Virus record (IMG/VR): IMGVR_UViG_3300028048_000043
DNA from: a virus
Lineage: Duplodnaviria > Heunggongvirae > Uroviricota > Caudoviricetes
DNA: 64,000 nt
Reading direction: 5' to 3' (one strand)
This document shows positions 41 to 55,831 of this stretch, in pieces (positions within the stretch are counted from its first letter, which is position 1; every line of letters begins with the position of its first letter). The notes below the pieces were generated by a model that saw nothing but the letters and a program-made list of their open reading frames with translations, was not told where the DNA came from and searched no databases. The position numbers and the translations under genes are program-made.

Positions 41-508
41 ATGATAACCAAGCGTAGAACCATTGTAACATGTAAGGAAACGTTTACGCAAATGAAATCG
101 TTTGGTTATATTAAAGGAAAGCTCAAAGGTATCGCATGTCACGATGATTTGTCGATGCCGGTATTTAATCATATACCAAGAATGTTTGATGAGGAATCTT
201 TCGTTTCTTGGATAGAAGATTATCTGTTTTTACACGAAGACCAGGTAAAGGTCTATAAAATAAATCAGATTATAGAACAATGGGCTATGGAAAACCCAGA
301 AATGAGTGATTCTGCGTTTACTTCGCTGTATATGGGAAGTGAACAACAGACACCTCAACAAGTGCTTAATTCAGGAATGTCTGGAATGTATCCTCAGACC
401 CCTGGATATCCATATTTACAGGGTAGTCCAGTTGGAAATTTCGCCGCGCAACCTTCTCCTTATTCAGAAAGCTCATATCCTGGTATAAGATATCAAGGAA
501 TTTTGTAA
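41..508 (+). CDS. hypothetical protein (Q/P/Y-rich C-terminus)
   Basis: 155-aa ORF; no recognisable motif; may be 5'-truncated by window edge. Confidence 0.4.
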   Translation: MITKRRTIVTCKETFTQMKSFGYIKGKLKGIACHDDLSMPVFNHIPRMFDEESFVSWIEDYLFLHEDQVKVYKINQIIEQWAMENPEMSDSAFTSLYMGSEQQTPQQVLNSGMSGMYPQTPGYPYLQGSPVGNFAAQPSPYSESSYPGIRYQGIL

Positions 509-2223: not shown

Positions 2224-3177
2224 ATGCCTGTAACAAATAAGTTATTTACAGAGGCTTTTAGAGCTAAAACAATTGATGGTTTGGTTTTACCCGACAGAAT
2301 ACGCAACGACGTTTCGCACGGGTTAACACAAAATATACTTCTTTATGGACCGCAGGGCGGAGGAAAGTCTACAATCGCAAGGATTCTTATTGATGGATAT
2401 GACACCCTTCTTTTGAACGGTTCGTCAGAAAACGGAATAGATGTTATTCGAGACAGAGTAGTTTCGTTTGCATCTGCCGTGTCTCTTGAGTTTGGGGCAC
2501 AAAAAACAAAAGTTATCTTTATAGATGAAGCTGATGGTCTTACAACTCAGGCATGGGACGCTTTGAGAGAGACAATCGAGCATTATGCCGATTCAGTAAG
2601 ATTCGTGTGTACCTGTAATAAGATTGATAAAATTCCTGCTCCTATTCAGTCCAGATTCAATTGCGTTCCGGTGTATCCAATAAACAAAGCTGAAGAAGAC
2701 TTTATGTTTGCTGGGTATTGTGCATATGTAGGGAAAATCCTTACGGGCATCAAGGTTTCATATGATGAAGAAACTCTTCAACAGTTTGTTAGAAACAGCT
2801 TCCCGGATATGCGATCAATCCTGAACGATATTCAGAAACTGTATATCCAAGACGCCAAGGAACTTAATAAGGAGAGTTTGGTAAAAACGTTTGATTGTTC
2901 TGATTTGTTTACGTTAATCGTAACCGGGAATAGTCCGGTTGAAAATTACAAATTCATAATGACAAACTACTCGACTTCTCCAGACGACGCTCTTCTTGCA
3001 ATATCAAAGTCGTTTGTCGATTTCTTAACATTGAATTACCCGCAGCTTTCTTCAAAGATACCATACATCATTATCACAACAGCCGAATATGCTTCTCAGA
3101 TGCAAACTGCACCAGATAAAGTTTTGGTTCTTTTGGCATGCTGCTTTAAACTTCAAGAAATAATCAGAAATGTCTAG
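2224..3177 (+). CDS. clamp-loader small subunit (RFC/gp44-like AAA+)
   Basis: LLYGPQGGGKST Walker A, FIDEADGLT Walker B, SRF (SRC-like) motif. Confidence 0.7.
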   Translation: MPVTNKLFTEAFRAKTIDGLVLPDRIRNDVSHGLTQNILLYGPQGGGKSTIARILIDGYDTLLLNGSSENGIDVIRDRVVSFASAVSLEFGAQKTKVIFIDEADGLTTQAWDALRETIEHYADSVRFVCTCNKIDKIPAPIQSRFNCVPVYPINKAEEDFMFAGYCAYVGKILTGIKVSYDEETLQQFVRNSFPDMRSILNDIQKLYIQDAKELNKESLVKTFDCSDLFTLIVTGNSPVENYKFIMTNYSTSPDDALLAISKSFVDFLTLNYPQLSSKIPYIIITTAEYASQMQTAPDKVLVLLACCFKLQEIIRNV

Positions 3178-4333
3178 AAAGTTAAATTTGGTAATAGACT
3201 TCAATAATATGGCTATGAGGTCTATGTTTACTTGCCAATATATGGGAGAAGGATCCGTAAAGAATTTTGACACTGAAGAGGAATGCAAAATTCTTGTTAG
3301 AAAGCTTGCAACTGATATGTGCCAGATTATAAAGATGTTTTCACCGGACAGGGTTATTGTTGCATGTGATACAAAGTCTCCATGGAGAACAGGATTATAC
3401 AAAGATGTTGACTATAAAGGAACTAGAAAACATGACGAAGATAAGAACTGGACAAACATTTTCTCTGCTTTGACAGATTATAAAGAAATACTTAGAAAAA
3501 ATAATTTCATTGTAACAGAGATAGAAAACGCTGAGGCTGATGATTTGGCTGCGCTTTGGGTGCATGAATTATTTGGGAACCGCAACGAGTCTGTAATCCT
3601 TGTATCGTCTGATAAGGACTGGACTCAGTTGGTTGCGTTTGGAACGTGCGACGCGTTTGTAGCCTGTTATAACCCAATATCAAATAATAAAAACCAGAGA
3701 AAGTTTTATGTTGAATCTGGATTTGAAAACTGGATAAATTCCCCGGACACTGTTGATATCTTTTTCAGTAACTACGATGAGTTAAAAAAGAAACTCAAAG
3801 AGATTATGATGTCAAACACAAAAGTTTTCAAGGAGATAATAGATCCAAACAGAGTTCTAATAGATAAGATTCTGTGTGGAGATGATGGGGATAATGTTCC
3901 GTCGTTCTACGAGTATTATAAGAGTGGTAAAAAAGCTAGGCTAACTTCACTTAAAGCTAGTCATCTCATAGAAAATCTTTCTATCCATGGTGTTGGAGGT
4001 CTTAATGAATCTGCAAAGGTCGGAACGCTGAAGACAGAAATGGAAAAAGAAATGAAGGTCGAGATTCCTGTTGATTTTGAAGACAGACTTATGCGACAGC
4101 GCAAACTTGTCGAACTTAACAGAGACTTATTTCCTGGTTCAATAGTGGATAGTTTCGATATTCATTCAAAGTATATTGATTCCGCCGGAACAGTGTCCAG
4201 CAAAATCACAATGCAGGAATTATTGAAGGATACAAAATTTATTGATAAAAATTATAATAAACCGAGAGAAAACAGTATATTTGATGATGTAAACGCATTA
4301 AATAGGTTTTCTAAGGCACCTAGTTTATTTTGA
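3170..4333 (+). CDS. 5'-3' exonuclease / flap endonuclease (phage RNase H-like)
   Basis: N-terminal LVIDFNNMAMRSMF and VSSDKDWTQLV resemble PolI 5'-nuclease/FEN acidic motifs. Confidence 0.65.
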   Translation: MSRKLNLVIDFNNMAMRSMFTCQYMGEGSVKNFDTEEECKILVRKLATDMCQIIKMFSPDRVIVACDTKSPWRTGLYKDVDYKGTRKHDEDKNWTNIFSALTDYKEILRKNNFIVTEIENAEADDLAALWVHELFGNRNESVILVSSDKDWTQLVAFGTCDAFVACYNPISNNKNQRKFYVESGFENWINSPDTVDIFFSNYDELKKKLKEIMMSNTKVFKEIIDPNRVLIDKILCGDDGDNVPSFYEYYKSGKKARLTSLKASHLIENLSIHGVGGLNESAKVGTLKTEMEKEMKVEIPVDFEDRLMRQRKLVELNRDLFPGSIVDSFDIHSKYIDSAGTVSSKITMQELLKDTKFIDKNYNKPRENSIFDDVNALNRFSKAPSLF

Positions 4334-6873: not shown

Positions 6874-8775
6874 ATGAACAAAATTATCGGTATTGACCTC
6901 GGCAGCACAATGAGTGCTGTCGCGGTTGTTGAACAGGGGAAGCCACAAATTATTGTGAACAATGACGGAGACAGAACTACACCGTCCGTCATCGGGTACT
7001 CTAATGATGGAGAGGTAAAGGTTGGAAATTCAGCAAAGCGTTCAGCCGTTGTCAATCCAAAAACTACTATTGAGGTTATCAAAAGATTCATTGGTAATTC
7101 CTGGAAGAGATCCTCAAAATATGCAAAGGATTTTTCATATGATATTGTTGAGGGTCCAAATGACACAATTCGTGTAAAGATAAACGGAAAGGAATACACG
7201 CCTCAGGAAATTAGTGCAGAGGTTCTTCGCAAACTTAAAAAGTCAGCGGAAGACTATCTTGGTTCAGAAGTCAAGGAAGCCGTTATAACTGTACCGGCAT
7301 ATTTTGACGACCAGCAGAGAACAGCAACAGTTGAAGCTGCAAAAATAGCCGGACTTGAATGTAAGAGAATCATAAATGAGCCAACGGCGGCCGCTCTTGC
7401 ATTTGGTCTTGACAAACTTGACAAGGACATGAAGATTCTTGTTCTTGATTTGGGCGGAAGTACAGCTGATGTTTCAATCCTTGAATTGGGAAACGGTGTA
7501 TTTGAAGTGGTCAGTACAAACGGAGATATGATTCTTGGTGGTCGAGATCTCGATCAGTTAATTACGGATTGGATTGTCGACAAAATAAAAGAACAGTGCG
7601 GCGTCGATGTAAAGAAAGACCATATGGCATATCAGAGGGTTGTTGAGGCAGCAGAGAAGGCAAAAATAGAACTTTCTAATGTTACTTCAACAGACATCAA
7701 TCTTCCATATTTGACTGCTGTCGACGGAGTTCCTCAGCACTTTATGTCAAGTCTCACTCGCGCTCAATTCGAAAATCTTGCAGAGGGTTTCATTAAAAAG
7801 GTTGAAAATCTTTGTAAAGGTGCTTTGGAATCGGCAAAAATGAACATCAACGATATAGACGAAGTTCTTCTCGTTGGAGGAACAACAAGGGTTCCTAAAG
7901 TTCAGCAATTCGTTAGAGATTATTTTAAGAAGGAACCTAACAAATCCGTTAATCCGGATGAGGCTGTTGCTCTCGGAGCTGCAATTCAAGGTGCTATCCT
8001 TGCTGGAGATCTCGGAGACGATATTGTTCTTCTTGATGTCACTCCTCTAAACTTAAATATAACAACTCTCGGTGATGTTGCTACAACAATGATTGAAGCA
8101 AACACTACTATTCCTGTTTCGAAGGAACATATTTTCACAACAGCTGAAGATAACCAACCGGCAATAACCGTTGTCGTTACTCAGGGAAACAGAAAGATTG
8201 CAAGTGAGAATAAAAAGCTCGGAGAGTTTAATCTTGATGGAATAGCTCCTGCTAGAAGAGGTGTTCCGCAGATCAAAGTAAAATTTGATCTTGATACAAA
8301 TGGAATACTTAAAGTTACTGCAACCGACACGGCAACAGGAAAAGAACAGTTTATAAGAATAGAGGGGTCATCTAATCTTGATGATTCTGAAATCGACAGA
8401 ATGAGGAAAGATGCTGAGTTGCATGAAGCAGAAGATAAAGCAAGAGTTGAGAAGCAGAATAAACTTAACGACGCAGAATCTCTCATATTTGCCACAGAGC
8501 GTCAGTTATCTGACCAAGGAGACAAGATCTCCGACAATCTGAAGAAAGATATAGCAGAAAAATTAAATGCCTTAAAAGCTGTTTATAACGTTAAACCTGA
8601 GGATAGGGACATCGATGCTATTGAAAAGGCAACAAACGTTTTAAGAGAAGCTGTATACAAGGCTAGTGAGGAACTCTATAAATCTTCTTCAACTGATTCG
8701 TCTTCCGGACAGAATCCATTCTCGAATTTTGATTTCGCAAATGGTGGATTTCCTGGTGGAAATCCGACGAAATGA
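6874..8775 (+). CDS. dnaK: Hsp70 chaperone DnaK
   Basis: [40 protein letters not shown] signatures; 633 aa with GGFPGG C-terminus. Confidence 0.9.
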
Positions 8776-10970: not shown

Positions 10971-11418
10971 TATAGAATACGTCATCTTTCCATAGAAGAT
11001 ATCTTGAAACGTAATCCATGTCTTCTTCTTTTGGTCGATTCTCTTTTTCTTCTTCAGCTTTTTGTTCAGCTTCTATTCTTTTCAGCATAGCCTCTTTATT
11101 TCTGGCATACATATCTTCGAGATCTTTTCTTTCTTTATCTGATAATCCAGCTATAAAATGTCTTTCTTCTATGTAATCGTACGCCTGTTTAAGTCGTTCT
11201 ATTCTTGTAGGATACATAAACCACCAGTCTATTTCTTCCTTAGGCATCAATGTGATTCCTCTATAATCTTTGATTGGTTTAATGTTCATTGTGTTTTTTA
11301 CAATGTCATACATATCATCACGATCCATCTTTTTATAGATTTTCTCGCGGAATAATGTAAGAACGGCAGTGACCGGATAATATAGTCTGTTGTTGTAATA
11401 TAAATGGTTAAGCTGCAT
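10966..11418 (-). CDS. hypothetical protein
   Basis: 150-aa ORF, coiled-coil/charged C-terminus. Confidence 0.45.
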   Translation of the reverse strand: MQLNHLYYNNRLYYPVTAVLTLFREKIYKKMDRDDMYDIVKNTMNIKPIKDYRGITLMPKEEIDWWFMYPTRIERLKQAYDYIEERHFIAGLSDKERKDLEDMYARNKEAMLKRIEAEQKAEEEKENRPKEEDMDYVSRYLLWKDDVFYK

Positions 11419-12244
11419 CTTTCAAAATATATTTGTCGCAATAGTCCATTATACCTTTAACGTGTATTTCTGCTATTGCTCGTTTTCCTTCTTCGGACAA
11501 AAGAATCTTTGTGTCTTCAACGTTTGTGTAGAAAAGATTTTCTGTAAGAACGGCCGGCATGTTAGCACCATATATAACTGTGAAGTTTTCCTCCAAGTCT
11601 GGATCGCCGTCAGACGTGTTCTTTCTTAATGTTGAACCAAGCTTAGGTATGATTTCGGCGGCTCTATTGTATATGCAGGTTGCCAGTTTATCGCTGTTAT
11701 TTTGTCCTTTTGTTGTGTAGATGCACCATCCCCTGGCGCTTGTCCATGCGTCACCGTGACCATGAGCGTTTGAGTGAACGCTTAGGAACAGATGAGAATA
11801 ATCTGGATACTGAGCTTTGTCCTTGTTTGCTCTCTTATATCTTTCAACAAGAGACACGTCAACATCTGATTCCGGTGTAACAGTATGAACACTGAATCCT
11901 TCTTTTTCAAGACCTTCTCTTATAAGAGCGCCTATTTCTCTATTTGATTTCCATTCGTATAGTTCCAACGCAGGCAGAACCCCACTACAAAGATAGCTTG
12001 ATCGTTTTCCAGGTGTTGTTGAAGCGTGACCATCATCAACATGAACCCTAATTTTCGAATATTTGCTCATAGTTGTATCTATATTGTTTGTTTCTTCTGT
12101 TTCTGTTTCAGACTCCTGTTCTTCCTGAATTTCATTTTCGTTTTCTGACATTTCACTCTGGTTCACCGTTGTGGTTGAAGTTTCATTCTCTTTTTTTCCA
12201 AAAAGAGAACATAACAGTTGTATTAACCATTTTAAGAATTCCAT
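11408..12244 (-). CDS. N-acetylmuramoyl-L-alanine amidase (Amidase_3-like) with acidic N-terminal linker
   Basis: IRVHVDDGHASTTPGKRS resembles IDAGHGG.DPGA; later LSVHSNAHG resembles SIHADA motif. Confidence 0.55.
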   Translation of the reverse strand: MEFLKWLIQLLCSLFGKKENETSTTTVNQSEMSENENEIQEEQESETETEETNNIDTTMSKYSKIRVHVDDGHASTTPGKRSSYLCSGVLPALELYEWKSNREIGALIREGLEKEGFSVHTVTPESDVDVSLVERYKRANKDKAQYPDYSHLFLSVHSNAHGHGDAWTSARGWCIYTTKGQNNSDKLATCIYNRAAEIIPKLGSTLRKNTSDGDPDLEENFTVIYGANMPAVLTENLFYTNVEDTKILLSEEGKRAIAEIHVKGIMDYCDKYILKDAA

Positions 12245-30566: not shown

Positions 30567-30719
30567 TTAAAACACGAAATACAGTTTGTTTTCGTACTTA
30601 TCCGGATCTTTTTCTTCAAGAGCGTTGGTAAAGATTTCTGCTAGAGTGAGATTTTCGAATGCCCCAAGCCACACATTTTCTTCGACGTCTTTAAAATAGA
30701 CTTCAACTTCATCATTCAT
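30567..30719 (-). CDS. small acidic protein (50 aa), ATGA-coupled to upstream gene
   Basis: MNDEVEVYFKDVEENVWLGAFENLTLAEIF...; start overlaps stop of 30716-31309 gene. Confidence 0.3.
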   Translation of the reverse strand: MNDEVEVYFKDVEENVWLGAFENLTLAEIFTNALEEKDPDKYENKLYFVF

Positions 30720-31309
30720 TTCGGAAGATTTTTAATTTTATCTAAAGGAAGTTCTTCACCAGCGACACAATCATATAATGTATTGCCCCCTCTTTGTACA
30801 GTATATCTTTGATTTCCAAATCCAGAAAGATCTGTTTTAACCCAGTGTGGATATTCTTTTATGATTTCTTCTCTGACCTCTTTTCTTATATCATCTTTCA
30901 TTTCTTCCTTTAGAAGATTTCTTAGATGATCGGCGTTTGCTTTAATTGCATCATAATCGTCAATCCCAATTTCCAACCAACTCGCTGTTTGTACAGCTTT
31001 GTCGAATTCTGTCAGGTCTGGAACTTCATCACAGAAAACGATATCTGATTCTGAACTACCTTCCCAACAAACGCCATTATCATAATAATATTCGATATGG
31101 TTTCTTGTTGAGAATTTGATATCACTGTTATAATTGTCAACAATGGCGATAATGTTTACCCATCCATTTCCGTTTGCTCCACACTCATCGTTTGAGCAGT
31201 GATTTGCATCTGTACATATGATTCTTACTTTTCTTCCGTCGCGGGTTTCTATATTCCTCTCTGGATTTTTAAGATATTCTTCAAGTTTGAATGATTTTTG
31301 TAATTTCAT
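30716..31309 (-). CDS. hypothetical protein
   Basis: ORF track gives 30716-31540, but the extension runs through a terminator and promoter; start placed at internal Met MKLQKSF (31309). Confidence 0.45.
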   Translation of the reverse strand: MKLQKSFKLEEYLKNPERNIETRDGRKVRIICTDANHCSNDECGANGNGWVNIIAIVDNYNSDIKFSTRNHIEYYYDNGVCWEGSSESDIVFCDEVPDLTEFDKAVQTASWLEIGIDDYDAIKANADHLRNLLKEEMKDDIRKEVREEIIKEYPHWVKTDLSGFGNQRYTVQRGGNTLYDCVAGEELPLDKIKNLPK

Positions 31310-31324
31310 AAAAACATTATATTT

Positions 31325-31345
31325 TTTGCAAATATACTGATTATT
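31325..31345 (-). promoter_or_regulatory. TAnnTTTG element (minus strand)
   Basis: rc ATCAGTATATTTGCAAAAAAT, about 20 nt upstream of ATG 31309. Confidence 0.45.
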
Positions 31346-31356
31346 TTCTAAAAAAT

Positions 31357-31380
31357 AAAGGGCGGATTCACCGCCCTTTT
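31357..31380. terminator. GC-rich hairpin terminator after SPFH gene
   Basis: AAAGGGCGG attca CCGCCCTTTT. Confidence 0.6.
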
Positions 31381-31397
31381 GTTTTTGTTGTTTGTGA

Positions 31398-32588
31398 TTA
31401 CTTGGAATACTTGTCTGACAAGTCAAGAAGGAATTTGAGTCCCATTGCATCCATCGCTGTGGCACCCGAAGAACCGTTTCCTCCACCGCCCCAGATAATC
31501 TTAGGAAGCTCAACATTGGAGAATGCCTCTGCAACACCAACCTTGGTCTTGTATTCCCATTCTGCCCTTTCCTGAGGAGTCAGACCTGCTGCCACCTTTG
31601 CGCGGTTGGCTGCTGCCTCTGCTTCGCCCTCGGCAATAATCCTCTTCTTATCAAACTCTGCCTTCTCTGCTGCAAGACGGGCAACTTCGCGTTCCTGTTC
31701 AGCCTTTGTGACCTCTGTTGCCTTCACCTTCTCCTGTTCCCACTTGGCCTTTGCTGCTGCTGCCTTACCTTCAGCCTCTGCCTTGATAGCATCCTGCTGC
31801 GCAGCCAGTGCTTCTGCCTTCTTGGTCTGGATGGACATATTAGCCTGCTGCTGGGTCTGGATCTGCTGGTTCACCTTGTCATCATAAGTGATTTCAGTGA
31901 TGGATACCTGGTCAATAATAACACCATAATTGGTGAATGGTGAACTTTCTGAACGGGCATATCCATTGGGAGAGTGTTCATCTGCAACAAGAGATGCGAC
32001 CTTTACCTTCTTACTTTCTCCAGTGAAAGAGTCAATGACATCATCTTCACGGACAGTAGTCTTATATACACCATTAGTGAGCTGGTCGGTGATATAGGCA
32101 ACCATATCATTCTTCTTCTCTGCATAAGATTCAAATGCTGACATCAGAGGACCGGATGCATAGATAACCTTCACAACATTCTGTGCAACCAGGTCATTCA
32201 TCAACCTATCCATTCCATTGTATGCGGTCTGGATGAGTTTCAGGTGAGCAACATCAGTAGGGAGTACGACACGAAGGGATCCATAGATGTAACCAACAGA
32301 TGCATCATTGAAAACAACCTTGATGGGAGTACCATGGGAATTGCCTTCCACATCCTTACCACCAAACCAGAACTGCTGGGTCTTGTAGTACTCGGTCTTC
32401 TTACCGAACCACTGCCACTGGAAACCAGGTTCTGTCCAGTATGCCATTTTTCCAGTGAAAGGATACTGGTTGACCACAATGTTCTCATTCTTCACATCCT
32501 CACCGATGCTTCCCATCAGACAGAGAACGATTACTGCGAATACGCCGACGATTGCGGCGACTACTTTGTTTTTTGTTACGTTAATCAT
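31398..32588 (-). CDS. SPFH/band-7 (flotillin/YqiK-like) membrane protein
   Basis: N-terminal TM helix (VVAAIVGVFAVIVLCLMGSIG), central SPFH-like region, long Ala/Glu/Lys coiled-coil (AEAEGKAAAAKAKWEQEK...EAEAAANRAK); GC about 50% vs about 35% background. Confidence 0.75.
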   Translation of the reverse strand: MINVTKNKVVAAIVGVFAVIVLCLMGSIGEDVKNENIVVNQYPFTGKMAYWTEPGFQWQWFGKKTEYYKTQQFWFGGKDVEGNSHGTPIKVVFNDASVGYIYGSLRVVLPTDVAHLKLIQTAYNGMDRLMNDLVAQNVVKVIYASGPLMSAFESYAEKKNDMVAYITDQLTNGVYKTTVREDDVIDSFTGESKKVKVASLVADEHSPNGYARSESSPFTNYGVIIDQVSITEITYDDKVNQQIQTQQQANMSIQTKKAEALAAQQDAIKAEAEGKAAAAKAKWEQEKVKATEVTKAEQEREVARLAAEKAEFDKKRIIAEGEAEAAANRAKVAAGLTPQERAEWEYKTKVGVAEAFSNVELPKIIWGGGGNGSSGATAMDAMGLKFLLDLSDKYSK

Positions 32589-32754
32589 TGTTTTTATTTT
32601 TTATGAGATAATAAAATGGAATTAATGCCTTTGGATATGTGATGGTTGTTTTCTTATCGGTCCACTTCATGATACCGAAAACTTCAAGAAAACAAACTAT
32701 GCTGTAAAGAGCATAAGCTAAAAGTGTTAAAAAAATCAGTACTTTGTAAATCAT
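32581..32754 (-). CDS. 57-aa hydrophobic peptide co-transcribed with SPFH gene (NfeD/YuaF-like partner candidate)
   Basis: MIYKVLIFLTLLAYALYSIVCFLEVFGIMKWTDKKTTITYPKALIPFYYLIKNKNND; stop overlaps SPFH start (ATGATTAA); below ORF-track cutoff. Confidence 0.4.
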   Translation of the reverse strand: MIYKVLIFLTLLAYALYSIVCFLEVFGIMKWTDKKTTITYPKALIPFYYLIKNKNND

Positions 32755-32778
32755 GTTTATCTGTCATGTTGTTTCGAT

Positions 32779-32792
32779 TGCAAATATAGGAA
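32779..32792 (-). promoter_or_regulatory. TAnnTTTG element (minus strand) for the peptide-SPFH operon
   Basis: rc CCTATATTTGCAATCG, about 27 nt upstream of ATG 32754. Confidence 0.4.
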
Positions 32793-32812
32793 CTAATTTC
32801 TATATTTCCAAA

Positions 32813-34585: not shown

Positions 34586-34768
34586 CTAATCTTCTAAAAT
34601 AAGATCAAGAATAATCGTTATCGGCCAGAAAGCGGCTAGTGACACTTCTGCAATAATTGTTAAAGGATCGTCATCATCGCAATATCCTTTAAGTGACCTT
34701 TTATAGCAGACTAATCCAGCTATAAACAAATAAAGAGTAACAATCAATATAAGAACTAAATCGCTCAT
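34586..34768 (-). CDS. small membrane protein
   Basis: 60 aa, two hydrophobic helices. Confidence 0.35.
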   Translation of the reverse strand: MSDLVLILIVTLYLFIAGLVCYKRSLKGYCDDDDPLTIIAEVSLAAFWPITIILDLILED

Positions 34769-35900: not shown

Positions 35901-36734
35901 TCAAAATTTGAACGCTTCCTTCATAAACCTTTCTCGATTTTCATCAAGAGTTAAATCAAATGCAGGAATAACTGTAAATTTCGATCGAGTGAAAGTTATA
36001 GGTGCATTAGACTGTGGAATAAGTCTACTCTCTGTTGTTTCTTTCTTATATACGAATCGACCGAACCTATACTGATCGGCGAACGCACACCAATCTACAC
36101 CAGATTTTGCTTTACATAGTTCAACTTGTTCATCTGTATTTCTACTCATAAGATCCTTAGGAGAAAGATATGTCTGAGCAGTCTGCTGCTTAGAGTTCCT
36201 GATGCAGTCGATTTGGCGGTACAGGAACCAAGCATACACGTCGTTTTTATTTGGAACGACCCAGACTTTACAGTCGAATTGGGCTAGTTTCATTTTATTG
36301 ATTTCGTCATACACTTCCGCAAACGTAACATCTACATCTCCGCTATCAACAAACTTGTTTGAAAGTTTATTCAGTATGAATTGTCTGTTGAATTCGCTGG
36401 TTGCTAACGAAGCTAAAATAGACTGAAGTTTGCACAATCTTCCACCAAATGGAGTGTCGGTTTCCTGTGTATCATAATCTGTTATGAGAAGACTTATCTC
36501 GTCGCTCTGCGTATATGCAAATTTAACTCCCTGAACGTTATTGCACAGGAATTTTGCCGTTTTGTTCATCATATCGATGAAATCATCATCGAACGGTTTT
36601 TTGAAATGATTCTTCACGAGCGTACTGAAGTTCTTTCCGTCAAGCATAACAAGAATGTTACTGTTCGGGAGAATCCTGTAATCAGTAAGATCTCTATAAT
36701 AATTACACTTTTCTTTGAGGTTTTTGAAATTCAT
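35901..36734 (-). CDS. Thg1-like protein (tRNA-His guanylyltransferase family 3'-5' nucleotidyltransferase)
   Basis: ILVMLDGKNFSTLVKNHFKKPFDDDF matches Thg1 VVVRLDGRNFHRF..KP.D; FAYTQSDEISLL matches metal-binding IAYGQSDEYSFV; KLQSILASLATSEF matches KFMTHVASQFASSY. Confidence 0.65.
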   Translation of the reverse strand: MNFKNLKEKCNYYRDLTDYRILPNSNILVMLDGKNFSTLVKNHFKKPFDDDFIDMMNKTAKFLCNNVQGVKFAYTQSDEISLLITDYDTQETDTPFGGRLCKLQSILASLATSEFNRQFILNKLSNKFVDSGDVDVTFAEVYDEINKMKLAQFDCKVWVVPNKNDVYAWFLYRQIDCIRNSKQQTAQTYLSPKDLMSRNTDEQVELCKAKSGVDWCAFADQYRFGRFVYKKETTESRLIPQSNAPITFTRSKFTVIPAFDLTLDENRERFMKEAFKF

Positions 36735-37859: not shown

Positions 37860-38708
37860 TTAGTCTGTTCTTACAAGAAGTTTTCTATCTTTATTGTTTT
37901 TAAACATCATAGTTTGATAACATTTTGCACAATTAGGTATAAATGCGTTATAGAACTTCATGTTAAATTCCTTGAATCTCTTGTCGAATCCGCCATCAAG
38001 ATAATCAGATATGTTTGCATATTGAAGCACTCCCATATCACATTTGTATATGTCACCATCCTCATCAATAAGGAATGTATATAAAGACTCTGGTTTCTGA
38101 CAGTAACACCCAAAGAAACTATAAATCCCGTTAGATGAAAACGCGCTTCTTCCAATCGGTACTATTCCACTTTCACTTAAATAGTTTATATCAGGAATGT
38201 TATATTTTGCACCCATCTTTTCAAGAAGTTCTCCAGCTTTATCCACATTTTTATTTGTGTGCCATTTATCCCTTGAAATCGATATGTTTATTTTATCTCC
38301 ACAGTTTATGACGAGTCGCTGAAGTTTTGCTTGAACAGAAATATTGTTAGCCCAGTCTCCATTGCTGACAATTCTTGCGTGTTTACAGGAATCTATAAGA
38401 ATTGTAAATATTTCATACCAGTCAGGGTTACAGAAAAATTCTCCTCCCATAAGGTTAATACTTACGACGTCGTTGTTTTTGATGAATTGAGCAATCTCCT
38501 TTGCCCTGTCTATGCTCATCATTATTTTGCTTTCTGGAGACGAATTGAAGCAGCAATGGGAACATTTTTGTGTACATTTATTCGTTATCCTTATTGTCCA
38601 ATGAAGAAACCGCATGCACTCGTTTGCTAATTTACAAGTGTTGCAGTTACAGTCGTGTTTTCCTTTACAAGTTTCCTCTACACAAATGTTGCAAGGAGGT
38701 TTTCTCAT
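37860..38708 (-). CDS. radical SAM enzyme with N-terminal Cys-rich extension and C-terminal twitch/SPASM-like motif (paralog 1)
   Basis: CTQKCSHC (Cx3Cx2C), NLMGGEFF (GGE motif), C-x14-G-x4-C then CAKC at C-terminus; N-terminal CNICVEETCKGKHDCNCNTCKLANEC. Confidence 0.7.
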   Translation of the reverse strand: MRKPPCNICVEETCKGKHDCNCNTCKLANECMRFLHWTIRITNKCTQKCSHCCFNSSPESKIMMSIDRAKEIAQFIKNNDVVSINLMGGEFFCNPDWYEIFTILIDSCKHARIVSNGDWANNISVQAKLQRLVINCGDKINISISRDKWHTNKNVDKAGELLEKMGAKYNIPDINYLSESGIVPIGRSAFSSNGIYSFFGCYCQKPESLYTFLIDEDGDIYKCDMGVLQYANISDYLDGGFDKRFKEFNMKFYNAFIPNCAKCYQTMMFKNNKDRKLLVRTD

Positions 38709-52037: not shown

Positions 52038-52487
52038 TTATTCGCTATATCTATATATTGATTCTTTTCCGGTATCGTCGCCAATCGGATTGTCGAAACC
52101 GTATTTCAGCGCCGTTGCCTTGAAAAGTGGAAGACCATACATAGCATAGTCGTCCCAGTTTTCCAGACCTTCTTCGAGGATCCAGTTCCACATCATAACG
52201 ACGTTGTACATGAGACTTGAACTGATTCCTCGTTTGTCGAGCGCCTTTTCAAAACCGAAATCTACGTCTTCTTTTAGTTGATTCAGGATATTCTCCCTGG
52301 TAAACGGAATAAGTGTGGAATTCCATTTCTCTTCGTTGTCCCATTCTTCGCTTGGACTGATTCCGAATCTGGAAAGCATATTATACGGGATAAACCGGCA
52401 AAGCCTGTTAAAATCCCTTCCGTCGATACATCTAGATTCGAATTCTTTCTTTTCCGCTAGTTCAGCGAGCTGTTCAAGTGTTTTCAT
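52038..52487 (-). CDS. hypothetical protein
   Basis: 149-aa ORF. Confidence 0.4.
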   Translation of the reverse strand: MKTLEQLAELAEKKEFESRCIDGRDFNRLCRFIPYNMLSRFGISPSEEWDNEEKWNSTLIPFTRENILNQLKEDVDFGFEKALDKRGISSSLMYNVVMMWNWILEEGLENWDDYAMYGLPLFKATALKYGFDNPIGDDTGKESIYRYSE

Positions 52488-52500
52488 TTTTGTTTTCTTT

Positions 52501-52764
52501 TTAAATGTTAATTATTGTTGAGTTGTGATTATAATCCATAAAATATTTCTTGTGCAGGAATACTCTCGTTATAATCGGTTCCCCGGAATACGCGTAATCC
52601 ATTTCAAACAGTTTCTCTCCGTTCTCTGTGTCGACAACGGCATATATGCCGGTTAGAGAACCATCATTAAGTTCAATGAGTTTATCAAGATCCTTTGTGA
52701 TATAAATCTTGTCGTCGTCCAATACATCACAAAAAATAAATTCCTTTGCTCTTTCCTTATCCAT
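52501..52764 (-). CDS. hypothetical protein
   Basis: 87-aa ORF. Confidence 0.35.
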   Translation of the reverse strand: MDKERAKEFIFCDVLDDDKIYITKDLDKLIELNDGSLTGIYAVVDTENGEKLFEMDYAYSGEPIITRVFLHKKYFMDYNHNSTIINI

Positions 52765-52766
52765 CG

Positions 52767-53189
52767 TTATCGTATTTGCACTGTTACGTCAATCGCGTCA
52801 CCTTCAGTCGGAGCGCCTTCAATTCTTGTCTTTTCTTTCATATCGAAAAACCAGTCACCGAAGTGCGTGTATAGGAACCCGTCGAGAAGTTTACCCTTTA
52901 CTGTTATTCCTTGGCTCAAAATCCACTTCACACCGGCTTTGAAATTCTCAACAGCGATCGCCTTTATCCAATCTGTACTGAGTGACTTCGCATTTTCCTC
53001 TGCCGCCGAGTCTATTTCTTTTTCATCGTTCTCTGTAAGTTTGAGGTTGTCCATGTTCTTTATGAATTCCTTCATTTCCAGGAGTTCGTGCTTTATCCGG
53101 AACTCGTTTCCGCTCTTGCATTCCTGTACCAGTCGGTCTATCTCGTCGAATATTATCTGTTTTTCTTTTTCGTTCATATATTTCAGCAA
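52767..53189 (-). CDS. hypothetical protein with shared C-terminal FKAG module
   Basis: FKAGVKWILSQG...GDAIDVTVQIR. Confidence 0.4.
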   Translation of the reverse strand: MLKYMNEKEKQIIFDEIDRLVQECKSGNEFRIKHELLEMKEFIKNMDNLKLTENDEKEIDSAAEENAKSLSTDWIKAIAVENFKAGVKWILSQGITVKGKLLDGFLYTHFGDWFFDMKEKTRIEGAPTEGDAIDVTVQIR

Positions 53190-53534
53190 TTATAACGTTT
53201 TCTTGTGAAGCGGTATAGCCATTTCGTTCTTTATCGAAATCGTCCTTATTTCAGAATACCTTCCGTTCCAAGCGACACCGATAAACGCACTCATTCCACA
53301 ATTCTCCTCTATTATCATGTCGGACACCTTGTTTATAAGTACCCTCTCGTTCGCATCTTTTGTCATTGGGTAAAGTTCAGGATACATATCACTGTAATTT
53401 TCTCCCTGATCCAAAGTAACCTTTCCTTCAGCAAACCATTCTGGAGATCCGAAGGAATTGAAATGGTACACATTGGCGTAATAATGCTCAGTGAAATTGC
53501 TCCATTTTGTTATGTTTATTACGAAATAGTGCAT
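53190..53534 (-). CDS. hypothetical protein
   Basis: 114-aa ORF. Confidence 0.4.
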   Translation of the reverse strand: MHYFVINITKWSNFTEHYYANVYHFNSFGSPEWFAEGKVTLDQGENYSDMYPELYPMTKDANERVLINKVSDMIIEENCGMSAFIGVAWNGRYSEIRTISIKNEMAIPLHKKTL

Positions 53535-53556
53535 TGTGTTACTCCTATTTTTTCCA

Positions 53557-53572
53557 ATTGCAAATGTACGGA
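53557..53572 (-). promoter_or_regulatory. TAnnTTTG element (minus strand)
   Basis: rc CCGTACATTTGCAATTGG about 27 nt upstream of ATG 53534. Confidence 0.45.
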
Positions 53573-53636
53573 ATTATTTCCAAACTTCCAAACACACAGA
53601 TAAATATTTTATAAATTTTACAGGTTTACCAAAGCG

Positions 53637-54668
53637 ATGCTGCTATATGACAACAACAATATCCGAGTAATTTACAATACAGACCGCACCTATACAATAG
53701 TGTACCATCCCGATCAGCGTGACAACCTTTCCCTTGTCGATTCGTTCGATTTCGTAAACGGAGTTCAGGTATTCATACTGTCGAACAAGGGAGGCATAAA
53801 AGACTTTTATGTCCTCGCCACGGAATCAGACAGACATCCTGACTGTCCGTCCGTACTTGTCGTAACGACAGACGAACTCGAACTTGACCAGCATTGTTCA
53901 TCATCTGCGGGAGCGTTTACCAGATTCAAGGTGTACATAGTAGACTGCAATGGAAAACTAATCGACGGCAACCCGTTCGATTCGACTGATCCTTTCCTCT
54001 CAGATTCATACATTATAGCCGAACAGAAGCACTCAAACGGAAAATGGACGCTCGTAGACGTCGCGAACGAAACAGCGATAAACAACGCCAAGGTCGTTTT
54101 CAAGGACTATGACGCCAACTGCTTCAATCAGTCCCCGAAATACTACATAAAGAACCCGTCCACCGGAAAATGCAACATACTTACTTATAACGACTACATC
54201 GGAGACATGATCCTCATATTCGACGAATGGGTTGACGGCATATACACGACAGATGTTCCGCTATTCGATCTTGACAAGAAATATAACAAGATGGAATACA
54301 TATCGACTGAAATCGTGCCAGGCACAAACGACTCGGTGTTCACCATACTTTACGGAGGAGACTTCAACCAAACCGGCTGCACGGGTTCCAAGGCACTCGG
54401 GCATCCTGTACTTTTCTTTATTTCTTTCGAGCTTTCCATACTCGTCTCCGAAATCAAATTCGACAACAAGGAAACTTATTACTCCCTGTATAAGTTTCAT
54501 TACTACGACGACTATGACAAGGTGTTCAGACCGGTGGCTTCGTTCGTTACTGATTTGTTCATAGAGGACGAAGCGATTCACATCGTAAAATCAGGAAAGG
54601 AATACGCGCTTGACTTCGACAGGATAAAGTCTGGATATTCTAATTTCAGGAAAGTGGAAAACGAATAA
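53637..54668 (+). CDS. member of (D/R)EWV(D/E) paralog family (GC-richer copy)
   Basis: 343 aa; FDEWVDGIYTTDVP; about 45% GC vs about 33% for paralogs at 19-27 kb. Confidence 0.5.
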   Translation: MLLYDNNNIRVIYNTDRTYTIVYHPDQRDNLSLVDSFDFVNGVQVFILSNKGGIKDFYVLATESDRHPDCPSVLVVTTDELELDQHCSSSAGAFTRFKVYIVDCNGKLIDGNPFDSTDPFLSDSYIIAEQKHSNGKWTLVDVANETAINNAKVVFKDYDANCFNQSPKYYIKNPSTGKCNILTYNDYIGDMILIFDEWVDGIYTTDVPLFDLDKKYNKMEYISTEIVPGTNDSVFTILYGGDFNQTGCTGSKALGHPVLFFISFELSILVSEIKFDNKETYYSLYKFHYYDDYDKVFRPVASFVTDLFIEDEAIHIVKSGKEYALDFDRIKSGYSNFRKVENE

Positions 54669-54673
54669 TAATA

Positions 54674-54729
54674 TATGAAATTTCATACGTTATCAAGGTT
54701 TTACAACCAAAACATATGAAATTTCATAT
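54674..54729. repeat. two copies of palindrome TATGAAATTTCATA (14 and 16 bp) 26 bp apart between convergent genes
   Basis: 54674-54687 and 54714-54729 perfect palindromes. Confidence 0.5.
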
Positions 54730-54743
54730 AATTTAAATTATTC

Positions 54744-55052
54744 TTATCTTGGATCTTTTAACCAGTCTTCGTAATTGCGTATCGCGAACGTTATGCTAGA
54801 TATTGTTTCTTCCGCTCCGTATTTGACCATTGCATCAAGAAGACTCATTTTGTTCCATTCAACATCATACAGGTATACTGTATTTTCTTTTACTTCTAGA
54901 TATTGAATCACAAAATCGTCTTCATAAGACAGCGGGCAACCATACACGATATCTAATGATCCTCCGAATTTTTGGTGTTTCATTATCAACCGTTTTATTC
55001 TCTCGATTTCAGATGAATACCTTTTAAGGATTTCTTGTTTGTTTGTTTTCAT
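54744..55052 (-). CDS. hypothetical protein
   Basis: 102-aa ORF. Confidence 0.4.
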   Translation of the reverse strand: MKTNKQEILKRYSSEIERIKRLIMKHQKFGGSLDIVYGCPLSYEDDFVIQYLEVKENTVYLYDVEWNKMSLLDAMVKYGAEETISSITFAIRNYEDWLKDPR

Positions 55053-55067
55053 AATATAATCATTGTT

Positions 55068-55415
55068 TCACTTGTTTCTAATATCCTTATAGTAATCGCG
55101 AAGCCTGTACCTCGCCCACCTTATGCCATTTGCGCTTACTACATATGTGGCTTCTATGAAGTTCATCTCCGTCCGCCTCTCATATACCATGGCGACAAGA
55201 CAGTCCATCACGAGCAACTGGTGCACCTTATCATCCGTTAGGTGATCCCCGCACCCCGAACAACAGTCGTAACATACAGCCCTGCTCCTTATCTCGGAAA
55301 AACACCCGAACTCAGAAAAACCGCAGTCCTCTATCACACCGGCGAAGAAATCCATGAACTCGAAGTCCTCAAGCTGCATCCTCTTCTGGATTATCGTGTC
55401 TTGTTCCGCCTTCAT
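55068..55415 (-). CDS. Cys-rich hypothetical protein
   Basis: CYDCCSGCGDH; GC-rich (about 48%). Confidence 0.4.
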   Translation of the reverse strand: MKAEQDTIIQKRMQLEDFEFMDFFAGVIEDCGFSEFGCFSEIRSRAVCYDCCSGCGDHLTDDKVHQLLVMDCLVAMVYERRTEMNFIEATYVVSANGIRWARYRLRDYYKDIRNK

Positions 55416-55420
55416 ATCCT

Positions 55421-55831
55421 TTACAGTTTCTTAAGACAACAAACCAGACCGTATTCCATCGCATTCTCGAATCTCGGAAAAATCTCTTTCTCTATGGTCT
55501 TACCGTTATAAACGGCACCGTCGTCTTCGAGAGCCTGGATCCATTCGCTTCCGTTGTTTTTATAGAACGAAAGATAAAACCCAGTGCTGTTCGGATCGGG
55601 TCTGACATCTATGTATATCCCGAAGATTTCCGTCAGCCATGTCAACGCCCCCTGCTGCGTAGGAGCGTGAAGCATCTTCCCGTCATCGAACTTATCCCAA
55701 TGAAAAAACCTCTCGAAACACCATTCGCCGTCAGATTCATAATAATAGTATATGTAATCCGTATCGGAATCAAACCCTTTCTCTTTTAAGAGTTTGGCCG
55801 TTTTAAAACTAACGTGATTTTCGGTAATCAT
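55421..55831 (-). CDS. MITEDYVSF-family paralog A
   Basis: MITENHVSFKTAKLLKEKGFD ... EYGLVCCLKKL; GC-richer than other copies. Confidence 0.55.
   Translation of the reverse strand: MITENHVSFKTAKLLKEKGFDSDTDYIYYYYESDGEWCFERFFHWDKFDDGKMLHAPTQQGALTWLTEIFGIYIDVRPDPNSTGFYLSFYKNNGSEWIQALEDDGAVYNGKTIEKEIFPRFENAMEYGLVCCLKKL

Follow-up and report, generated by a model that had tools for sequence, protein, structure and literature searches.

How did an SPFH/band-7 gene come to reside in a phage, and what might it do there together with the small membrane protein encoded next to it? These questions are raised by a locus of IMG/VR virus record IMGVR_UViG_3300028048_000043 (Caudoviricetes), of which a stretch of 64,000 nucleotides (nt), hereafter the window, was analysed. 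A unit of two open reading frames (ORFs), encoding a protein of 57 amino acids (aa) and an SPFH/band-7 protein, occupies positions 31350-32812 on the minus strand. A first-pass annotation, made from the letters alone, had described it as a promoter, the 57-aa ORF, the SPFH ORF and a terminator, and sequence reading, an ORF search and a terminator scan located all four elements at the same coordinates (Table 1). The best explanation of the locus as a whole, which we regard as probable, is an autonomous two-gene cassette of a huge Bacteroidota phage that joins an SPFH scaffold to a small membrane partner and whose SPFH core has recently been swapped. The parts of this explanation that concern the identity of the SPFH protein and the evolution of its gene are held with high confidence.

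The SPFH ORF matches Pfam Band_7 (PF01145) over residues 34-260 with 42.7 bits (cut-off 23.6; E=8.4e-11), its only Pfam match at E<=0.1. It also matches phrog_11908, a phage family annotated as of unknown function, with residues 7-378 aligned to profile positions 5-410 of 430 (E=1.1e-36). No SPFH-subfamily model of NCBIfam was matched, and a sequence search of the PDB returned a single, weak match to prohibitin. The AlphaFold2 (AF2) model, built with 94 homologues, has a predicted local distance difference test score (pLDDT) of 84 and contains both the N-terminal transmembrane (TM) helix and the long coiled coil, a helix of 97 residues, that had been read from the sequence earlier. We compared the whole chain with known structures using Foldseek, and obtained matches to HflK/C, prohibitin, erlin, QmcA (QmcA-YbbJ), flotillin, stomatin and major vault protein (MVP). 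Identities to these cage-forming SPFH families are 8-15% with E from 3e-9 to 1e-5, and no family is clearly preferred. The HflK/C assembly 7vhq ranks first and the FtsH-HflK/C complexes 7wi3 and 9cz2 are also among the matches; flotillin structures rank 21-23, below HflK/C, prohibitin, erlin and QmcA. The predicted structure thus displays the full cage-forming SPFH fold. At 50% identity, the SPFH family falls into 1060 clusters for E<=1e-3 and 318 for E<=1e-30, with lengths close to 400 aa in nearly every case, and a ratio of nonsynonymous to synonymous divergence (dN/dS) of 0.10-0.16 indicates purifying selection.

In 97% of the SPFH homologues, more positive charge precedes the TM helix than follows it, the net charge being +2.2 to +3.1 on its N-terminal side and -1.3 to -1.9 on its C-terminal side. 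Because of the positive-inside rule, an N-in/C-out orientation with a periplasmic SPFH domain is predicted, as in HflK/C. The SPFH domain of flotillins lies on the cytoplasmic face of the membrane, and the topology, as a prediction only, argues against the flotillin/YqiK type. Together with the lack of a subfamily match and the about equal Foldseek families, it leaves the YqiK/FloA-like identity proposed in the first-pass annotation without support.

The predicted orientation and the rank of 7vhq raise the question of an HflK/C-like role, in which the SPFH protein would enclose and modulate FtsH and so shield membrane proteins of the phage or the host, with the small protein as an adaptor or a decoy substrate. 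The same analogy has been raised in a preprint on crAss-like phages. Escherichia coli HflK/HflC share with the window protein a full-length fold match (7vhq, 7wi3, 9cz2 and 9paw), one N-terminal TM helix and the predicted periplasmic domain. However, the identity is about 10-14%, no NCBIfam model of HflK or HflC is matched, the only PDB sequence match is the weak one to prohibitin, and prohibitin, erlin, QmcA and flotillin match the fold about equally well. HflK and HflC form a heteromeric pair, whereas the window has one SPFH gene, with a coiled coil of 97 residues and no paralogue, and linkage to FtsH is absent from all loci examined. Such a role is, in our judgement, quite unlikely.

The AF2 model of the 57-aa protein consists of one TM helix (residues 2-26), followed by a basic tail of about 30 residues with short turns, and has no beta-domain. 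The protein has no match in Pfam (E<=0.1), PHROG, NCBIfam or PADLOC; the single NCBIfam line obtained for it is a chance-level transmembrane similarity far below the cut-off. An NfeD/YuaF-type partner had been suggested earlier. The cassette does resemble SPFH-NfeD operons (QmcA-YbbJ, YqiK-YqiJ, FloT/YuaG-YuaF) in that an SPFH gene shares an operon with a small membrane partner, and QmcA is a fold match (8z5g), but the window partner has neither a Pfam match nor the NfeD domain (PF01957), and its single helix and short tail are unlike those partners, so the suggestion was set aside. QmcA and YqiK face the cytoplasm, and the orientation predicted for the window SPFH protein is opposite to theirs.

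A family hidden Markov model (HMM) was built from six peptides, and an alignment of 22 sequences was made later. The window peptide matches the HMM with E=2e-26. Members of the family share an M-I/R-Y/F start, a YY inside the helix, FG.K.T and IPFY[YG], in which P-F-Y is invariant; in the alignment, Y17, P46, F47 and Y48 are invariant. We define the IPFYY peptide and SPFH module here as a single-pass protein of 51-93 aa with the M-I/R-Y/F, YY and IPFY[YG] motifs, encoded immediately upstream of an SPFH gene on the same strand, and the window pair has this architecture throughout. The peptide family includes 284 clusters at 90% identity, all unnamed or annotated as "hypothetical", and no Pfam domain was found among the best 120 of the 284. 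A record identical to the window peptide comes from a JGI contig of 314,739 bp. In one huge-phage lineage (L003 9496-9978; L038 5497-5979), the peptide is extended at its C-terminus by a domain of about 100 residues that weakly matches BACON, and totals 160 aa.

The pair recurs in other phages. In crAss001, gp91 ("SPFH-domain/band7-family protein") is 46% identical to the window SPFH protein over 95% of its length, and gp92 ("hypothetical protein"), encoded just upstream, is the homologue of the 57-aa ORF. In all fetched loci with an SPFH identity of at least 50% whose sequence covers the upstream region, a match to the peptide HMM immediately precedes the SPFH gene. Such a match also precedes it in about 50 of the 60 viral loci from IMG/VR, at SPFH identities as low as about 41%. 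The two genes are mostly spaced by -35 to +40 nt. In a few lineages one or two genes stand between them, as does a DUF6734 gene in L010, with gaps of 130-900 nt. Over 31 de-duplicated phage loci, conserved neighbours amount to lineage-specific synteny (PhoH, pilin-like proteins and others), and nothing but the peptide is universal. Since the SPFH gene of Bacteroidota-lineage phages comes with a specific small membrane protein in nearly all loci, the functional unit appears to be the pair.

In one crAss001-like locus (L068 5794-7200; IMGVR_UViG_3300045988_017056), the A-rich spacer has lost 22 nt, so that peptide and SPFH protein are joined in frame into 468 aa, either as a natural "Rosetta-stone" fusion or through an error of assembly. 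No natural peptide-SPFH fusion was present among the retrieved proteins. In a distant SPFH clade (33-37% identity; L086 8609-9169, L091 and L094), the IPFYY peptide is absent and pilin-like N-terminal-methylation proteins are encoded downstream of SPFH; a paper of 2006 described the same SPFH/pilin-like adjacency in the T4-like phage 44RR (ORF097c, ORF098c).

The window and crAss001 pairs are alike in the homology of both genes, their order and tight spacing, their location on a phage and the Bacteroidota host. They differ in that the crAss001 pair has a low GC content at third codon positions (GC3) of 0.27, like its own genome, and adjoins the putative lysis pair gp90/gp89, whereas the window pair has a GC3 of 0.49, stands alone and appears to have had its SPFH core recently swapped. 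The crAss001 order, in which gp92-gp91 is followed by the two-TM gp90 and the membrane-anchored peptidoglycan hydrolase gp89, recurs in L055, and in the huge-phage clade nearest to the window an SLT lytic transglycosylase is encoded 2-4 genes upstream. An SPFH cage with its partner might on these grounds regulate holin or endolysin action or the timing of lysis at the inner membrane and peptidoglycan, and a periplasm-facing topology would set the cage beside the peptidoglycan. The link is not conserved, however, as most phage lineages have unrelated neighbours, and bacterial copies of the pair lie among housekeeping genes. Searched with ORFs from related loci, the window contains no SLT homologue, and its only endolysin-like ORF (11408-12244, minus strand; phrog_435, E=3e-34) is about 19 kb away, so no recognisable lysis gene is linked to the cassette. 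A function in lysis is thus improbable.

The same pair is found among housekeeping genes on chromosomes of rumen and gut Bacteroidales, with SPFH proteins 62-68% identical to that of the window and genomes of 47-51% GC. The order transketolase-[pair]-LeuRS-HtrA is retained in nine species-level Bacteroidales genomes; in another lineage the pair lies beside Ffh and a dihydroorotate-dehydrogenase-like gene, and in a third beside RecF and a GHL10 hydrolase. The chromosomal pairs of the rumen (e.g. the L014 group) share with the window pair the architecture, the peptide family (52-55 aa) and the TAnnTTTG promoter. Unlike the window pair, they are cellular, syntenic in the nine species, and written in a codon dialect rich in CCG, GCG and ACG. 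In L014 itself, about 560 nt of non-coding DNA (7218-7780) lie upstream of the chromosomal pair, and two extra ORFs separate it from transketolase.

In neighbour-joining (NJ) trees, copies from bacteria are intermingled with those from phages (L045, L042-L050 and the window clade), and the crAss001-like clade lies outside. Because the trees are based on distances and carry no support values, no more than a general picture of several transfers between phages and hosts is drawn from them. In rumen and gut Bacteroidales the pair is a regular cellular module, and it has moved repeatedly between bacteria and phages, including crAss-like phages and several huge-phage lineages. Since it is a normal chromosomal module of Bacteroidales, the phage copy may be regarded as a borrowed host function.

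The most recent event at the locus appears to have been an exchange between phages. The closest SPFH alleles are on rumen metagenome contigs of up to 412 kb. Over the core of the gene, DNA identity is 92% to L007/L008 and 89% to L099, both of a different huge-phage lineage; many 60-nt bins are 95-100% identical, several of them 98-100%, and the block has abrupt edges. Outside the core, identity is about 63% in the peptide gene and at a background of 30-50% in the first 14 codons, the last ~12 codons and both flanks. The only other genes found to be shared between the window and its L003/L007-type relatives are a Thg1-like gene and a 134-aa ORF, with about 50% protein identity, as against 87-92% for the SPFH protein. 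The Thg1-like gene (tRNA-His guanylyltransferase family) lies at 35901-36734 on the minus strand, and its homologues in L003 and L007, about 50% identical, carry PF04446.

Synonymous divergence between the window and L007 was estimated by the Nei-Gojobori method. The SPFH gene has a proportion of synonymous differences (pS) of 0.28 and a synonymous divergence (dS) of 0.34, whereas the peptide gene (pS 0.87) and the Thg1-like gene (pS 0.78) are both saturated. DNA identity in this comparison is 0.90 for SPFH and 0.63 for the peptide gene; in the control comparison of L003 with L007, the values are 0.85 and 0.80. The L003 and L007 genomes are close to each other (81% aa identity in the Thg1-like protein), yet the window SPFH allele is closer to L007 than L003 is, and nests in the clade as the sister of L007 by NJ. 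The closest alleles overall (92% and 90%) stand in an "SLT ... peptide-SPFH" gene order that is absent from the window. These sequence patterns are most simply accounted for by homologous recombination that put an allele of another huge-phage lineage in place of the SPFH core and left the resident AT-rich peptide gene and the ends of the SPFH gene as they were. Acquisition from a host or another element had been proposed earlier: another phage lineage fits as the source, given the 92% identical DNA block, whereas a direct origin from a host chromosome was rejected as the proximate event, the nearest bacterial copies being 62-68% identical and written in another codon dialect.

The GC content of the SPFH gene, which had been put at about 50%, is 0.475, in a window of 0.362, and its GC3 of 0.491 is the fifth highest among 95 ORFs (median 0.333, standard deviation (sd) 0.073). 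Its amino-acid composition alone, with window-average codons, would give 41.8% GC, in comparison with a gene mean of 36.8% (sd 2.1). Amino-acid composition contributes +0.050 to the GC excess and synonymous codon choice +0.056 (sd 2.6 points), each about 2 sd; the anomaly is thus roughly half Ala/Gly/Glu content and half a real difference in codon usage. The gene uses CAG in 21/21 cases (100%), AAG in 32/37 (86%), ATA in 0/22 and AGA in 0/9, prefers GGT, CGT, ATC, TTC and GCA, avoids NCG, and has an effective number of codons (ENC) of 44.7 (median 48). The peptide gene is not deviant (GC 0.276, GC3 0.293), so that the description of the unit as compositionally foreign holds for the SPFH gene, whose GC3 and codon choice are shifted, and fails for its partner. 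Within the SPFH gene, the core (31435-32547) has a GC content of 0.481, and the flanks have 0.33-0.34. The first-pass annotation had taken a GC3 similar to the rest of the genome, together with homologues common in related phages, as grounds for dropping the idea of import. Homologues are indeed common in related phages, but GC3 is unlike that of the rest of the genome, and because codon choice is shifted as well, the anomaly exceeds what the Ala/Glu/Gly content accounts for.

A second compositional island lies at 52038-55831, with ORFs at 52038-52487, 52767-53177, 53190-53534, 53637-54668 (plus strand), 55068-55415 and 55421-55831. GC3 in this island is 0.45-0.64, and the codon-choice GC residual reaches +0.095, above that of the SPFH gene. 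Its ORFs have no Pfam match, and ORF 53637-54668, the sole one scanned against PHROGs, has no match there. The island may be another imported or highly expressed gene set; a tie to the SPFH gene could not be made, as none of its ORFs matched Pfam.

The composition also permits a different account of the low divergence, namely that the SPFH gene was inherited vertically and that translational selection on a highly expressed gene set its GC3, its codons and its low synonymous divergence. The codons do resemble an optimal set, a GC3 of 0.49-0.62 is common to the whole phage clade of the window SPFH gene, and raised GC3 is also seen in several other rumen phage lineages. However, a bias of the size indicated by ENC (44.7 against 48) is too weak to lower a saturated dS to 0.34, and vertical descent fits poorly with 60-nt bins that are 98-100% identical, with abrupt block edges, and with an adjoining, co-transcribed peptide gene that is saturated and AT-rich. 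Nor does it fit an allele that is nearer to L007 than that of the much closer L003 genome, or closest alleles that stand in a different gene order. Vertical inheritance of the core is therefore considered unlikely.

Several points nevertheless weigh against a recent swap and against parts of the wider explanation. The NJ trees lack support values, and the genome-level relatedness is based on two other shared genes only, in loci of <=21 kb. The dS of SPFH is below that of the Thg1-like gene between L003 and L007 as well (0.64 and 1.02), and codon selection probably adds to the low SPFH dS, the GC3 of about 0.5 being clade-wide. It cannot explain the drop from saturation to 0.34, because the reduction between L003 and L007 is only about 40%. 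As for the partner, its orientation is ambiguous, with a charge of +1 before the helix and +3.7 after it, and the BACON-like domain on the L003/L038 peptide, of a type usually found outside the cytoplasm, also bears on this orientation. The exchange between huge phages remains our preferred reading of the SPFH core.

Table 1. Features of the cassette and its downstream edge; nucleotide positions are those of the window.
Feature	Position	Strand	Basis
Bacteroidota-type promoter: -33 TTTG and -7 TATATTTG(CAA)	32778..32812 (TTTG 32812-32809; -7 motif 32788-32778)	-	Sequence reading; function predicted from consensus only
57-aa single-pass membrane protein ORF	32581..32754	-	ORF search, family HMM, AF2
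SPFH/band-7 protein ORF, 396 codons	31398..32588	-	Pfam PF01145, phrog_11908, AF2
Apparently exchanged SPFH core, codons ~15-385	31435..32547	-	blastn and sliding-window identity
Predicted parts of the SPFH protein: TM helix; alpha/beta SPFH domain; 97-residue helix; further helix; Gly-rich disordered linker; terminal helix	Residues 2-28; 29-235; 237-333		AF2
Intrinsic terminator: AAAGGGCGG-TGAAT-CCGCCCTTT, then ATTTTTT	31350..31379	-	Terminator scan and sequence reading
Promoter motif TATATTTGCAA of the next gene (30716-31312); downstream cassette edge, outside the cassette	31326..31336	-	

The arrangement of the cassette is compact. A TTTG lies 20 nt upstream of TATATTTGCAA, matching the -33/-7 layout of Bacteroidota promoters. 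The SPFH ATG overlaps the stop of the 57-aa ORF by 8 nt (ATGATTAA), and the two genes are probably translationally coupled. With this overlap and a shared promoter-to-terminator unit, co-transcription of the SPFH gene with its small membrane partner, as first described, is upheld. The terminator stem found in the scan (31379-31357) has 9 bp, 6 of them G-C pairs. Because of this terminator and of the next gene's own TATATTTGCAA, the pair forms a discrete transcription unit. The window contains 8 copies of the extended motif TANNTTTGCAA (positions 537, 542, 14359, 21370, 30532, 31326, 32778 and 53558), where 1.7 are expected, and none of 100 shuffles reached 8. Seven of the 8 sites face an ORF just downstream; when aligned, TTTGCAA is invariant and a TTTG lies about 20 nt further up. 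The sites look like a set of promoters for the host RNA polymerase in a huge phage. A 60-aa ORF at 34586-34768 (minus strand), 1.8 kb upstream of the cassette, has two hydrophobic segments (MSDLVLILIVTLYLFIAGLVCY...AFWPITIILDLIL) of a small membrane protein and no family match.

The cassette has the features of a phage "moron", that is, a predicted promoter and a terminator of its own, deviant composition in the SPFH core and relatives in which the pair stands in other contexts, with the qualification that the composition of the peptide gene is native to the window. This build, the membrane location and a quick turnover of alleles between phages, as for conflict genes, could point to a role in superinfection exclusion, anti-defence or defence, in which the pair would keep the DNA of other phages from entering or protect the membrane from depolarising abortive-infection effectors. 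An anti-phage or superinfection-exclusion role had been raised at the outset. Neither the two proteins of the pair nor the flanking ORFs matched PADLOC-DB (E<=0.01), the sole exception being a chance-level Cmr5 match on an unrelated ORF. The cassette neighbours in the window have only sub-threshold zinc-ribbon or DUF matches in Pfam and PADLOC, and neither lysis genes nor known defence or anti-defence genes are found nearby. Moreover, the gene is under strong purifying selection with no sign of diversification, and stable chromosomal orthologues beside leuS, ffh or recF fit a housekeeping membrane function. Neither the searches nor the gene context thus favour such a role, which we consider highly improbable.

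How the two proteins might act together can be proposed tentatively by analogy with solved SPFH assemblies, and the case for the following mechanism is somewhat short of evenly balanced. The SPFH protein would be anchored by its one N-terminal helix, with the SPFH domain and coiled coil facing the periplasm as in HflK/C. It would most likely oligomerise into a large ring or dome around a patch of the inner membrane; such an assembly is proposed because every solved full-length SPFH protein forms one. The small protein, as an obligate partner or client embedded in the membrane, would sit within this patch or along its edge, a functional analogue of NfeD or of the transmembrane region of FtsH and a homologue of neither. 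The phage would express the pair from the host-type promoter during infection and thereby organise, remodel or stabilise the host inner membrane. Alternatively, the pair may control the access of membrane proteins, such as proteases, to the patch.

The SPFH gene is a member of a known superfamily and of phrog_11908, and phage SPFH genes have been annotated before. Viral SPFH/band-7 genes are widely annotated in T4-like and Vi01-like phages, crAss001, many BFVD entries and giant viruses, and a paper of 2026 still calls the presence of an SPFH/band-7 gene in a phage genome unclear. The SPFH proteins of T4-like phages (44RR, Aeh1, RB43), Vi01-like phages, Pseudoalteromonas phage pYD6-A and giant viruses resemble that of the window in superfamily and in being virus-borne. 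They differ from it in their 10-25% identity; lipoproteins (phrog_200) occur among them, and in some cases the linked genes encode pilin-like N_methyl proteins and not the IPFYY peptide. A literature search on SPFH, band 7 or gp91 of crAss001 found nothing, and searches on SPFH with lysis, superinfection exclusion, jumbo phage, Bacteroides or anti-phage returned annotation-level mentions only. In the GenBank phage collection, no near-identical DNA was found. Two features appear to be undescribed in the literature searched: the obligate IPFYY partner, which makes this a type of SPFH operon distinct from SPFH-NfeD, and the core-only replacement of an allele between very divergent huge phages.

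These results do not overturn the current understanding of SPFH proteins; they refine how a gene abundant in phages of gut and rumen is annotated, and they make its function testable, since culturable systems that carry the pair exist, for instance crAss001 on Bacteroides intestinalis. An SPFH core that moves between divergent huge phages while the partner stays points to selection on the allele that is carried. A more interesting case would be a phage protein that co-assembles with the host cage or mimics it. The IPFYY peptide and SPFH protein would then be a distinct, undescribed SPFH system, periplasm-facing and with a non-NfeD partner, and phages would capture and swap alleles to stay compatible with the host cage, their protein co-assembling with, hijacking or poisoning the host scaffold. 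We regard this as speculative and unlikely. If true, allele turnover would mark phage-host molecular mimicry at the inner membrane, to which crAss001 (gp91/gp92) would give experimental access.

Other genes of the window concern the phage itself. A DnaK/Hsp70 of 633 aa is encoded at 6874-8775 on the plus strand (phrog_22485, E=3e-215) and is about 50% identical to homologues in uncultured huge phages of 630-735 kb; it also matches Prevotella phage records at <60% identity. This phage-type DnaK marks the window as part of a huge phage. ARAGORN detected no tRNA gene in the 64 kb, and many ORFs of the window have matches only in PHROGs. Two clamp-loader-like genes, an exonuclease gene and a radical-SAM-like ORF (565-1680, 2224-3177, 3170-4333 and 37860-38708) are genes for replication and metabolism of a kind typical of large phages.

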